Part shown: piece after piece, positions 59,307 through 64,000 of the stretch
Layout: every line of letters begins with the position of its first letter
How positions within the stretch are numbered: position 1 is the first letter of the stretch
The notes under the pieces: generated by a model
The model's database searches: none
What the model saw: the letters and a program-made list of their open reading frames with translations, nothing else
Told to the model about the DNA's origin: nothing
Assembly (NCBI GenBank): GCA_000165345.1
Contig: CM000434.1
Location: 64,001-128,000 of the forward strand
DNA: 64,000 bases
Direction of reading: 5' to 3'
Program-made: the position numbers and the translations under genes

Positions 59307-62300
59307 TTAATTAATCATTTGCCTCTTTCTCTTTGTTAATACGTAATTTACCACATTTTCTTCATTATCCAAAATTACTTTAACACTATGTAATCCACTA
59401 GTTTCATAATAAAATCCGCTTATTGGCTCTATTCTAAATATCACATTCTTATTCTTGATGCCATCAGAAAAATTCGAAGTTCCTGATCCTGGCCCAAGTA
59501 CTTGCCCTAAACCTGGACCTGAAATTGAACTTGAAACTGAACCTGAACCCGTTGTTGATCCTATTAAAGTTCCTGATCCAATTACGGCTCCTATTACTGA
59601 AGCTGATCCTGATATTGGTCCTGATAATGATACTGAACTCGGTACCGATGCTGATCCTGATACTAAAGCTGATACATTTCCTGTACCTGCTACTGATCCA
59701 GAAATAGTTCCTGACCTTGCTATGGATGTTCCAGTTCCTATTACAGTTCCTGTACTATTTAATCCTTCCAAAGAAGATGAAACAGTGGAAATCCCTCCTC
59801 CATGATGGCCACTACCATTGGTATACATCTCTTGATTTCCGATATTTGCACTATTATAAATCAAGTTTGGATTCTCATCCATTTGAAGAGAATTATTAGA
59901 AATCACTGCTCCTCCTACTGTAACTCCTGTTTCTATTCCTGTTCCTGTTCCTGTTGTTCCTGTTGTTCCTGTTGTTCCTGCTGCCATTGCTCCGGTTCCT
60001 GTTGCTCCAGTTATTCCTGATGCTGAATTAATATTACTATTTTGAAACATAACAACTATCAGTAATTCAACCAAAGTATCTTTCTTTAACTTTTCCAAAA
60101 AAATGGCTAAAGAACGCACAGGAGTTAATCTATATTCACTTCTTATACCTTTCTGCCATAATCTTCTTGTTAAACTTAAAACTTTTGGCTGTAATCTTGC
60201 TGTTTGCGTCATTACTATCACCTTTGGATAGCATGACTTTAATAAAGAAATTGGTTTTAAAATTAATTCTTTTGTCAAATCTGTCATTTCTTCATATTCA
60301 CTTGCTTTAAGACTTCCCAATGAAAATGTATTAACTCCTAAATTTCCTGGGTCATTTTGATAATTATTACTAAAATTTGTAATACTCACATTTTTTTCCT
60401 TTTTGTTATTATTATTATTATTACTATTACTATTATTATTGTTAATATTTGTATTAAATCCTCCCCATGAACTTCTTCTTGTCATACCAAAATTTTTTTC
60501 ACTTGATGAAATACCCAAATTAAATACACCATTATTCATCATTGAAATATCATTTACTGAAATACCATTAATATATCCTCCAGTATTCACAAACTCTGAT
60601 CTATACTTTTTTGCTTGCTCACAAACTTGATTAATAATTAATTCTATAGAAATTTCTCCCATAATACAATATAAAAAATTCTGAAATCTACCTATACCCA
60701 ATCCTCCCATATTATTGCTGATATTATTATTGTTATTATTCACATTCATATTATTATTATTATTATTATTATTATTATTACCACTATTTAAACAATAACA
60801 TCTTGTAATACTATTAATTATATCTGAATAAGAACCTCCCATTCCATAAATTATATTAATCCCTTGTTTTTCGGATGTTATTGAATATACTAAATTTGTT
60901 TGATTATATAAATTAATATCAAAATCCATAATAGGATCCAAATAAAATTTGACTTTTTTTTCTTTATATATTAATAATTCTGTTGATTCTGACAGTAAAT
61001 TCAGTATCTCATTCAATACTTGAACATATAGCTTTATTATCTGGTTATCACGAATATATTCGTAACTTTTCATTATAAAGTTATTTTCATATATACTTTT
61101 TAATCTATAATTCCCACTATTACTTTCATATTTCCACTCAAAAGCATGCATTTTCAAAAATAAATCTCTTATAAATTTATCCTCCTCTCTTAGAAACTCT
61201 TCATCTATATCCTCTTGTTCTTTTTGATTATCCTGTTTATGTTCCTTTTCCTTTTCTTCTTTTTTTAATTTTACATCATTATTACTATCATTATCATAAA
61301 TTTTCTTAAAGATAGATTTTTGAGTAAACAAATCCAATCTTCTCCTCTTAATAATAACTTCCTCTTTTAATTTATTACTAAACATTTTCTCAAGTAATTC
61401 CAAGTAAACAATTTTTGACATTATAGGAATTGTCATTCTTACAATTGGAACATCATCTAAATAATCCAACCAAGGTAAAATAAGCTTTAGTGATAATAAT
61501 AATCCTTCAACTTCTAAAATAATATTTTCCATATTAACAATTTGTTCATTTTCATTCAATTGATATATTCTCTTTAAATCTTCATATAATAACAAATTGT
61601 TATCATTACTTTGACTAAATAATAATTTATTATCTAAATTAAATTATTTANAACTTGAATCATTATTATTATTATTATTATTATTATGAGATAAACTATT
61701 ACTAATACTCAAATCTGGTTCATTTAATTGATATATCATATCAANAGCTAATGATAATTTTGCTCTTGGAGGACCAAATTTATTATTATTGTTATTATCA
61801 TTAGTATTAATATTTGGTTGCTCATATATAGGAAATAAAAAATATCTTTGAATAGGAGAATCTTCAAGTATATCCATATTAAAATCTCTATTACATAATC
61901 CCGATGATATTCCAGAATTCCCTGATAATAATCTATTATTATGAAAATCATCAATTGTTATTCTTGAAGTTTTATTTCCAGCATTATTAATATTATGAAT
62001 TCCATCAATACCACCAATACCTGAACTCTTTTTATTTTTATTTTCAGAATCTGGAAAATAACTAATATGACCAAATACTTCATTATAATAATCACCTAAC
62101 AATAAAGAAACTAATGAAGATATCATGGAAAATGGAGCTGATTTTGGTAAACATAATAAATTATTTGAAATATCCAATAAAAGATAAGGATTTCTTGTTC
62201 TATATCCACATTCGTATAAAATCTTTTCAAATTCTTTATTATCATTAACTGTATTAATTTTTTTATCCAATAAAAATTCTGTTGGATATAATATTGGAAG

Positions 62301-64000
62301 CTTCCATAATACAAAATTATGATCATCAAATATTTTTGTAATATTTGTTTTTACTATATCACTAAAAGTTAAATCAATCATATTAACTTTTTCATCACTT
62401 TGTATATCCATTAAAAATGCTGTAGAATTTATTCTATCAATACTTCTTCCAAACAATGTATTTAAAGTTAAATGACTTTCATAAGTTTTTGAATTACATA
62501 TTCTTGATAAATAATATTGAAATTCATTTTTATCAATTGAACTTGGCAATAAATCACTTTTTAATAAATCATCAATATTTATACTATCTTCAATATTCTT
62601 TAATTTTCTTATAATTATTATTGCAGTTTTTGGTATATATTTAAATTCAATTGGTATTTCAATATTAAATACGACTAAATCTTGAATATTTTTTGTATTA
62701 TCTATTGATAATATATTTTGATGATCAATTATTAATTGGCTTAACCAATCATTAAAAATCTCACAAAATTTATCATATTCAAATGCTTTATATTTTATTC
62801 TTAACCACATTTCCAAGAAAATCTGACAAGTATAGCTAGTATCTATAATTAATAATTCATTATTAAGTTGATTAATATCTTCAAATAATATATTTGGTAA
62901 TGAGAATTCATCTTTATTGTTATCAAAATTTGAATTTAAATATGAGCCAAAAATAAAATTGGATAATTTTACTGAATATCCATAAATATCCTCCTCTATA
63001 TAAATACAATTAGATGATAAATTTAAATGAAATACTTCATTTTTATGACAATATGATAAAATTTCAAGTATTTGTCTAAATAAAGACCATATTAAATGAT
63101 TATCCCTTTGTGTTATTTTACCTTTTTCAAATAAATCAAATAATGTCGTATTTTCTTCCATAAATTCTGATTGAATATATAATAATATAAAATCTTCTTG
63201 ATCATTTCTTTCATCTTTTGTATTATCACATTTTTCAACCCAACATTGATAATATCTTACCATATATCTATGTTGAAGCATTACCAGTGAAGATACTTTT
63301 GTTTGAATCTTATTAAATTTATTGGATGGTATCCTATATATAGAAACTTGATAGTTATTTTGGTCAATTAAATGTATTGATTTTGTAATTATTACATTTT
63401 TACCAGAATAAAGTATTTCTAATACTCTAAAATCTTGAGTAAATCTTTTTGATGATAATAATGAATAATTAATATTATGCTCCAAAATCTCTTTTTGAAT
63501 ATATGATAGATCCAAATTTATTGTCATATTAGAAATTTCATTTTCTTCAATAATATCATTTGTGTTTAAAGGATAATCAAGAATTGTATCATCCAAAAAT
63601 CCAGATACCATTTCTGATACTGTTTTATTATTAAATTTTTCAAAATTATTATAAATTTCATTACCCTGATGATTTAATTTTCCAAATTCTTCATTATCCA
63701 TAAAATTATTTCTATTATCTTCATTTATAATACTATTACCCAAATGTCTCTCAAATTCTTTTTGATTATTTTGTCGTCTCATTTGTTCCCATAGATCTTC
63801 AGAAATCTGTAGATAATCACACAAATTATCTAAAATAATTTCCAAACTGTTAATTACTTGAAAAATACATTCTTGATCTCTACTTCTATTACTTAGAATT
63901 TCTTGTATTTCTTCTATTAATTTTATATTAATACTTTCTGGTAATTCCAAAGAAAATTCAAATAGTAATCCTGGGTTGATTATTGGATACTTTTCGTTAT
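59307..64000 (-). CDS. GCN2-architecture protein (kinase-like domain, then HisRS-like domain, then C-terminal domain). 5' end lies beyond the window. The kinase-like domain has degenerate catalytic motifs
   Basis: ORFs 61644..63950 and 59307..61595 are separated only by a region containing an n (61651). The frame is also open upstream of 63950 to the window edge. HisRS-like motifs: NPYLLLDISNNLLCLPKSAPF, GGSYSD (GGRYD-like), GLGIGRFQNF (GFGIGIERL-like), anticodon-binding-like VIVMTQTARLQPKVLSLTRRLWQKGIRSEY. The kinase-like domain directly upstream has a partial Gly loop (LEILYSGKN), HLNLSSNC in place of HRDLKPxN and NFIFGS in place of DFG. Confidence 0.55.

Follow-up and report, generated by a model that had tools for sequence, protein, structure and literature searches.

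A Cryptosporidium orthologue of the eIF2 kinase IF2K-D with a very probably inactive kinase domain

A gene of the GCN2 family on the minus strand of the DNA analysed here very likely encodes the Cryptosporidium orthologue of IF2K-D, an eIF2 kinase of Toxoplasma gondii (TgIF2K-D), and the one kinase-fold domain of its product is, with comparably high probability, catalytically dead. The DNA, referred to as the window, comprises 64,000 nucleotides (positions 64,001–128,000 of contig CM000434.1, assembly GCA_000165345.1). GCN2 is the best-understood link of ribosome and tRNA status to translation control, and to our knowledge phosphorylation has always been regarded as its output. In Cryptosporidium an entire genus of parasites appears to keep a GCN2-family protein under selection after its catalytic residues have been erased; if so, the sensor body must therefore function without catalysis of its own. 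The protein is predicted to be unable to transfer phosphate and to work as a pseudokinase. As an explanation of the results taken together we favour, with moderate confidence, an IF2K-D orthologue that acts as a non-catalytic sensor or scaffold under selection.

Catalytic positions were equated by the agreement of HMMER, MAFFT and hhalign alignments, the last comparing a profile of 12 Cryptosporidium orthologues with 53 canonical GCN2s; residue numbers of the Cryptosporidium protein are those of the full-length deposited sequence WKS78161.1. In the window protein the glycine-rich loop LGxGxFGxV reads LYSGKNVII, the VAIK lysine aligns with the serine of ‘YQVS’ (within YQVSIY, 63336–63353, minus strand), and the glutamate of helix alphaC is replaced by Lys396. 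The HRD motif has become HLN, within HLNLSSNC (63006–63029), and DFG has become NFI, within KLSNFIFG (62946–62969); in the motif alignment the protein has neither an APE motif nor an activation-loop threonine. All five catalytic elements expected of an active GCN2—glycine-rich loop, VAIK lysine, alphaC glutamate, HRD aspartate and DFG aspartate—are replaced, and the protein combines a kinase fold with an incomplete triad (Ser/Asn/Asn), the combination by which pseudokinases are recognised.

An earlier note on this DNA had read HLNLSSNC in place of HRDLKPxN, with the catalytic aspartate changed to asparagine, and NFIFGS in place of DFG; the three independent alignments agree with both readings (Asn488; N509-F-I). 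It had also proposed that the VAIK lysine was lost, which is borne out by the absence of any lysine at the position; the aligned residue, Ser381 of ‘YQVS’, falls outside the ‘VSIYRI’ to which the loss had been assigned. The possibility, raised in the note itself, that the HRD and DFG equivalents had been misaligned falls away, as HMMER against Gcn2 structures, MAFFT and hhalign give the same catalytic positions.

A phmmer search with the kinase-like stretch against PDB sequences led to yeast Gcn2 and its active kinase domain (E 3e-21); the top entry was the D835N inactive mutant 1zxe, and a profile of eight orthologues likewise found the yeast Gcn2 active kinase domain. An AlphaFold model of residues 1–678 shows a bilobal kinase fold with a predicted local distance difference test (pLDDT) of 70–90, for which the best PDB matches in Foldseek are the kinase domains of yeast and human GCN2, followed by PERK and PKR (1zyc, E 1e-14, TMt 0.78). 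Together, motif alignments, hhalign and Foldseek uphold the central claim of the note, namely that in this GCN2-type protein the kinase domain next to the HisRS-like region is dead.

It is very improbable that the protein is instead an unorthodox active kinase with displaced catalytic residues, such as WNK or CASK. TgIF2K-D lacks the HRD aspartate and is nevertheless treated in the literature as an eIF2-alpha kinase, and the nine intestinal Cryptosporidium species have a beta2 lysine (K368, in ‘ITKS’) that might stand in for the missing one; but this residue is a serine in the gastric clade, for which reason a WNK-like rescue was rejected, and canonical GCN2s also have a non-catalytic lysine at that beta2 position. 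Five separate catalytic elements are gone together, along with the APE motif and the activation-loop threonine, and the Pfam Pkinase score (27.8–29.5 bits) lies under the gathering threshold of 31.7.

The dead motifs are common to all 12 Cryptosporidium species or genotypes, the gastric clade included. Glycine-rich loop, VAIK lysine, alphaC glutamate and HRD aspartate are missing in 12/12; the HRD position reads HLN, HLS, HMS or HMA, and the VAIK lysine position holds serine or isoleucine. At the DFG position 11/12 species have NFI or NFL, and C. bovis, with DFV, keeps the DFG aspartate. Ratios of non-synonymous to synonymous substitution (dN/dS, Nei–Gojobori) were calculated for the three pairs among the window, C. 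meleagridis and chipmunk genotype I, and the ranges span all three: 0.17–0.26 for the kinase-like domain, 0.22–0.23 for the HisRS-like core, 0.05–0.13 for the anticodon-binding-like domain (ABD) and 0.54–0.73 for the Gly/Thr/Ser tail. Because its ratio is 0.17–0.26, the dead kinase-like domain appears to be maintained by purifying selection and not to be drifting. The gene itself is in all likelihood maintained and functional.

The gene is interrupted in this assembly by one stop codon. Minus-strand open reading frames (ORFs) at 61644–63950 and 59307–61595 share one frame with a single TAA between them; this frame stays open as far as the window edge. Two ambiguous bases (N) lie inside the gene, at 61651 and 61745, the TAA being 5 bases from the former. 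Residues 163–1725 of WKS78161.1 (1725 residues, Cryptosporidium sp. 43IA8) equal the window translation at 1559/1563 codons; the 4/1563 mismatched codons are the two that contain N and an ‘AAA TAA’ pair where the protein has Asn-Asn. Compared with WKS78161.1 and all orthologues, the TAA corresponds to a one-base insertion and a deletion in runs of A and T, in a low-quality patch of the assembly. Because the mismatches are confined to N bases and this one indel patch, and because at DNA level the gene is one continuous ORF of 5022 nt in C. meleagridis and of 5043 nt in chipmunk genotype I, with gene order unchanged, the TAA at 61644–61646 is an assembly error. A short intron at the TAA was considered and rejected: it would measure just 21 nt, too little for an intron, and leave the reading frame as it is. 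The in-frame stop and the two N bases could also be taken as signs of a decaying pseudogene or an assembly artefact. This has only a negligible probability and is regarded as refuted: just four codons deviate, all at N bases or in the one patch, full-length orthologues exist in 11 other species, the two checked at DNA level have intact ORFs, and overall dN/dS is about 0.24.

Comparison with WKS78161.1, to which the window protein has a database match of 100%, places the first 162 codons of the gene beyond window position 64000. The interval 61644–64000 given in the earlier note is too short: the frame runs on to 59307 and starts 162 codons past 64000. The C. parvum and C. hominis proteins share the 90%-identity cluster of WKS78161.1, and full-length orthologues are known from 11 further Cryptosporidium species or genotypes. 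Because of this cluster, and of a neighbouring gene identical to cgd6_520, the window can be assigned from its sequence to Cryptosporidium chromosome 6. A Dictyostelium origin of the DNA is ruled out by the Cryptosporidium matches, which also make Dictyostelium IfkA and IfkB, proposed in the note, the wrong proteins for comparison. The gene region is AT-rich (GC content 0.19–0.24). Public records mostly name the product ‘Ser/Thr protein kinase’, and the C. felis record carries the name IF2K-D. Gene models are inconsistent across assemblies: C. parvum record QOY40931.1 is a 944-aa ‘partial’ version, and further records from C. parvum and C. hominis give 1721–1736 residues.

The domain order of the protein is RWD, one kinase-fold domain, HisRS-like core and ABD, low-complexity tail, and a short conserved basic C-terminus. 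There is no room in it for a second kinase. The note had counted too few residues for one before the HisRS-like region, and indeed the GCN2 kinase-to-HisRS linker ‘LLKSDLLP’ begins 4 residues past the end of the kinase-like domain. Its suggestion that an active kinase might lie upstream of the window fails, since the deposited protein adds just 162 N-terminal residues, which together with the first 53 in-window residues make up the RWD domain. Pfam finds RWD in 8/8 orthologues (best E 4e-06; WKS78161.1, at 21.0 bits, falls short of the gathering threshold of 22.8), comparison with the RWD of GCN2 in hhalign yields a probability of 95.9% (E 6e-09), and the YPxxxP motif is invariant across orthologues. 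The linker between RWD and kinase-like domain is too short for a pseudokinase domain, and linker length, domain matches and pLDDT agree that no GCN2-type pseudokinase domain lies there. Such a domain is also missing from other protozoan GCN2-like kinases (PMC4889150).

Nor does the kinase-like domain correspond to the N-terminal pseudokinase domain of GCN2, as the note had allowed. Compared with 10 canonical GCN2s, it matches the active kinase domain on either side of the kinase insert; upstream of the active domain these proteins gave no significant match, only stretches with an independent E-value (i-E) > 2. In hhalign it scores 243.5 (E 6e-31) with the active domain and 109.7 (E 3e-13) with the GCN2 pseudokinase domain. 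These comparisons trace the descent of the domain to the active kinase domain of GCN2 and not to the pseudokinase domain. The idea of a canonical GCN2 whose N-terminal pseudokinase is seen here, while the true kinase sits further upstream or is missing from the assembly, draws on the dead motifs themselves and has no further support. It retains practically no probability and is counted as refuted, given that the upstream part holds only 162 residues, all of them RWD, that the domain adjoins the HisRS linker and has its match in the active kinase domain, and that 12 species share this architecture.

An exhaustive HMMER profile search of 1.84 billion representative sequences identified as the closest proteins outside Cryptosporidium TgIF2K-D (TGME49_119610/319610; E 8e-22), its Neospora and Besnoitia orthologues, and a Cardiosporidium fragment. 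The database product name of the T. gondii match is ‘eIF2 kinase IF2K-D (incomplete catalytic triad)’. Coccidian IF2K-D has the same order of RWD, kinase domain, ‘LL.S.LLP’ linker, HisRS-like region and ABD, and likewise lacks a GCN2-type pseudokinase domain (PMC4889150); the alignment with Neospora IF2K-D is collinear across RWD, kinase domain, linker and ABD, the last matching Neospora residues 2667–2718. In the coccidian proteins HRD is replaced by HLS or HVS, the glycines of the glycine-rich loop are gone, and glutamine takes the place of the alphaC glutamate. With HLS or HVS present in the coccidia as well, the catalytic aspartate seems to have been lost before Cryptosporidium and the coccidia split, with degeneration completed in Cryptosporidium. 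The coccidian proteins keep the VAIK lysine, DFG and APE, whereas Cryptosporidium has lost these (C. bovis keeps the DFG aspartate only, as DFV). They are also longer, with some 2,900–3,000 residues and long N-terminal extensions, compared with 1,377–1,743 residues in Cryptosporidium.

TgIF2K-D has been studied genetically, the Cryptosporidium protein by sequence and modelled structure. Published work describes TgIF2K-D as necessary if extracellular parasites are to stay fit (PMC6564765) and as bringing about the phosphorylation of TgIF2-alpha in them (PMC13076163). It has an RWD domain, which is missing from TgIF2K-C and from PfeIK1 (PMC4889150). In the literature TgIF2K-D is handled as a genuine eIF2-alpha kinase, and its incomplete triad is reflected in database product names only. 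As it too is without the catalytic aspartate, the question arises whether it is a kinase or an activator of another kinase. The Cryptosporidium gene is already annotated, and the IF2K-D family and its ‘incomplete catalytic triad’ label are already in databases; Cryptosporidium IF2K-D is an extreme case within a known kind. In the searchable literature no paper was found on the Cryptosporidium protein or on the pseudokinase nature of the IF2K-D clade.

The HisRS-like region was missed by Pfam and by PDB sequence searches, and profile–profile and fold comparison were needed to recognise it. In hhalign the whole post-kinase region matches GCN2 with a probability of 99.0% (E 2e-18) over 469 collinear columns; the HisRS-like core by itself reaches 98.6% (E 1e-15) and the ABD by itself 73.5% (E 3e-05), the latter being collinear inside the 99.0% match. 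An AlphaFold model of residues 636–1486 has a core with pLDDT 80–95 and disordered Asn-rich inserts. For this model Foldseek ranks the Gcn2 HisRS-like domains from yeast, human and Chaetomium highest (9f58, 8t7t, 9bf3, 9c9q; E 3e-12 to 1e-09), with authentic HisRS next. Both hhalign and Foldseek thus place a HisRS-like region and ABD directly C-terminal to the kinase domain, as in GCN2.

The protein therefore shares with canonical GCN2 (EIF2AK4) of yeast and human the RWD domain, the PEK-type kinase fold, the linker helix, the HisRS-like core and an HGTP-type ABD, all in the same order. It differs in having no pseudokinase domain, in its dead kinase domain without the long kinase insert, in the replacement of the motif-2 arginine by glutamate, in a GGRYD motif that is degenerate in intestinal species, and in having no recognisable C-terminal domain. 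Motif 2 reads ‘IYE’, Tyr-Glu for Tyr-Arg, in 12/12 Cryptosporidium species. The HisB motif is GGSYS, GGSNT or GGCYA in all nine intestinal species or genotypes and GGRYD in the gastric C. andersoni, C. muris and C. serpentis. Motif 2 (Y1119 and R1120 in yeast Gcn2) and HisB have both been linked to tRNA binding and activation, and R1120 is needed for tRNA binding in yeast (PMC11363354); the change of arginine to glutamate suggests that canonical tRNA binding does not take place here.

Several points weigh against the explanation favoured here. The change in motif 2, taken with GGSYS for GGRYD in intestinal species, may mean that the HisRS-like module has lost its canonical ligand, which would leave its sensing function uncertain. 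With the profile of 12 orthologues, hhalign gave no similarity to the C-terminal domain of GCN2. The alignments that underlie the AlphaFold models contained canonical GCN2 sequences, which favours GCN2-like folds.

The most likely single role, put forward tentatively and by analogy, is that of a subunit of the eIF2-alpha stress pathway which lacks catalysis and serves as sensor or scaffold. The RWD domain would dock on GCN1 and the ribosome, while the dimeric HisRS-like/ABD module would read a ribosome-associated signal, for which the P-stalk or a stalled ribosome would be likelier than a tRNA bound via motif 2. Through protein–protein contact the dead kinase domain would then relay this signal; its most plausible partner would be a catalytically competent PEK-type kinase, for instance cgd3_3230, with which it would pair and which it would activate allosterically. 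That the protein is a positive allosteric partner of another eIF2 kinase is held as tentatively as the role itself. PEK kinases are activated via kinase-domain dimers, which is one reason for favouring the scaffold model. Another is that the GCN2 pseudokinase domain stimulates its own kinase domain (PMC4014428), and a third is that TgIF2K-D is described as promoting eIF2-alpha phosphorylation in extracellular parasites and has the RWD domain that TgIF2K-C and PfeIK1 lack (PMC13076163, PMC4889150). The direction of the effect is taken from orthology with Toxoplasma, which points weakly to activation.

The internal pseudokinase domain of GCN2, a non-catalytic kinase fold that controls a PEK kinase domain through contact with it (PMC4014428, PMC12867742), offers a functional analogy for the proposed mechanism. 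The two are of different descent, the Cryptosporidium domain being nearer to the active kinase domain in hhalign, and the GCN2 domain acts within one chain, whereas the Cryptosporidium protein would act between separate proteins.

Two other roles compete with that of a scaffold in the eIF2-alpha pathway. In the first, akin to the regulatory decoy for uncharged-tRNA sensing suggested in the earlier note, the protein would be a decoy or inhibitor whose RWD domain competes for GCN1 and the ribosome and damps eIF2-alpha kinase signalling. IMPACT and YIH1, which compete with GCN2 for GCN1, are the known parallel: like them, the Cryptosporidium protein could occupy GCN1 through its RWD domain while lacking kinase activity, the YPxxxP motif being kept in all orthologues and the kinase domain being dead. 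Unlike them, it keeps a full GCN2 body, and the ‘ancient’ domain of IMPACT gave no Pfam match in 8 orthologues, for which Pfam reports RWD and a weak Pkinase only. We consider the decoy unlikely. The entire architecture of about 1,700 residues is under selection, kinase-like domain and ABD included, where RWD alone would suffice, and the Toxoplasma orthologue is described as promoting rather than inhibiting eIF2-alpha phosphorylation. PfeIK1 and TgIF2K-C, moreover, are without RWD; if cgd3_3230 is likewise, there may be no RWD-bearing competitor to displace.

In the second, the protein would have an eIF2-alpha-independent role as a GCN1- or ribosome-bound scaffold, for example in the handling of collided ribosomes. 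This would fit the complete loss of catalysis, the loss of the tRNA-binding motif-2 arginine and the conserved basic C-terminus, and solved structures show Gcn2 on the 60S subunit via its HisRS-like region (9f58 is among the top fold matches). The conservation of PEK-specific features in the kinase-like domain is more easily explained by contact with a kinase or with eIF2-alpha, and a ribosomal role outside the pathway seems about as improbable as the decoy.

A bolder form of the scaffold model, which we regard as doubtful, is that GCN2 function is split over two polypeptides in Cryptosporidium, and possibly across Apicomplexa. A dead IF2K-D would sense through its RWD, HisRS-like and ABD parts and switch on an RWD-less PEK kinase of the eIK1/IF2K-C type (cgd3_3230) as a kinase–pseudokinase heterodimer. 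If true, this would explain why TgIF2K-D is needed for eIF2-alpha phosphorylation despite its missing HRD aspartate.

Candidate partners are present in the same genome. The C. parvum kinome supplement lists cgd1_890 as the orthologue of PfPK4/TgIF2K-A and cgd3_3230 as that of PfeIK1; both are PEK-type, with intact GxGxxG and VAIK among the N-lobe motifs given there, which agrees with the suggestion in the note of a pseudokinase paralogue. These two are PEK-family relatives of Cryptosporidium IF2K-D, both with the ‘VRYY..W’ signature; they differ from it in keeping GxGxxG and VAIK and in being listed in the 2011 kinome. The absence of the studied gene from the C. parvum kinome alignments fits its Pfam Pkinase score, which lies under the gathering threshold. 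Absent from the published C. parvum kinome, the gene carries in public records a ‘Ser/Thr protein kinase’ label that is misleading for drug-target lists. No further Cryptosporidium PEK kinases were found among the AT-rich-looking matches of the exhaustive search, a 100-residue cgd3_3230 fragment from the kinome supplement gave no match as query, and an orthologue-profile search of an indexed protein database returned one irrelevant match.

Table 1. Features of the Cryptosporidium IF2K-D gene (window coordinates; aa, residues of WKS78161.1)
Feature	Position	Strand	Evidence
Whole gene, in-window part; very likely Cryptosporidium orthologue of TgIF2K-D, single exon	59307..64000	minus	
RWD domain, C-terminal third, YPxxxP as ‘YPIINP’; remainder upstream of window	63840..63998	minus	Pfam RWD 8/8 orthologues; aa 42–215
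RWD-to-kinase linker, 129 residues, poorly conserved	63453..63839	minus	pLDDT < 50 at aa 248–338
Kinase-like domain, aa 345–636; bilobal PEK-type fold, every catalytic motif lost	62577..63452	minus	HMMER, MAFFT, hhalign, Foldseek, dN/dS
Ser381 at VAIK Lys position	63342..63344	minus	alignments
Asn488 at HRD catalytic Asp position (motif HLN)	63021..63023	minus	alignments
N509-F510-I511 replacing DFG	62952..62960	minus	alignments
Linker helix ‘LLKSDLLP’ and HisRS-like core, aa 637–1232, broken up by Asn-rich inserts	60789..62576	minus	hhalign; AlphaFold and Foldseek
HisRS motif 2 ‘IYE’ (V-Y/F-R in canonical GCN2); Glu888 at yeast R1120 position	61821..61829	minus	hhalign alignment
In-frame TAA at 61644–61646, artefactual, beside ambiguous base 61651; compensated homopolymer indel	61644..61652	minus	orthologues read ‘FNN’ there
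HisB motif ‘GGSYS’ (GGRYD in GCN2 and HisRS)	60825..60839	minus	alignment
ABD, aa 1405–1486, most conserved part of protein	60027..60272	minus	hhalign; pLDDT 80–91; dN/dS
Gly/Thr/Ser-rich low-complexity tail, GC 0.41, unconserved between species	59445..60026	minus	dN/dS
Conserved 45-residue C-terminal segment, basic patch KRKRQ at end, then stop codon	59307..59444	minus	orthologue alignment

Plus-strand ORFs at 59455–60020 are shadows of the repeat-like coding sequence of the Gly/Thr/Ser tail. C. meleagridis and chipmunk genotype I have kept the order of genes around the locus; in both, the gene upstream of the IF2K-D orthologue encodes a 548-residue AAA ATPase with a TRIP13-type lid (554–2200 and 532–2178 of the respective records, both on the minus strand); in the studied genome this gene is expected just past the window edge. 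The convergent neighbour on the other side, at 55648–58998 on the plus strand, encodes a CAMK-type kinase of 1116 residues with HRDLKTEN and DFG intact (Pfam Pkinase E 1e-79). Its sequence is that of cgd6_520 as given in the kinome alignment of C. parvum, and long Asn/Ser-rich extensions flank its kinase domain.

The window contains 2639 N bases, located among other places at 3836–4289, at 20654–21248 and in a long run from 21982. The long run yields spurious mirror-image ORFs at 21914–24511 (plus strand) and 21967–24504 (minus strand), and scattered N bases split other ORFs, such as those at 2229–4226 and 4284–6221 on the minus strand.

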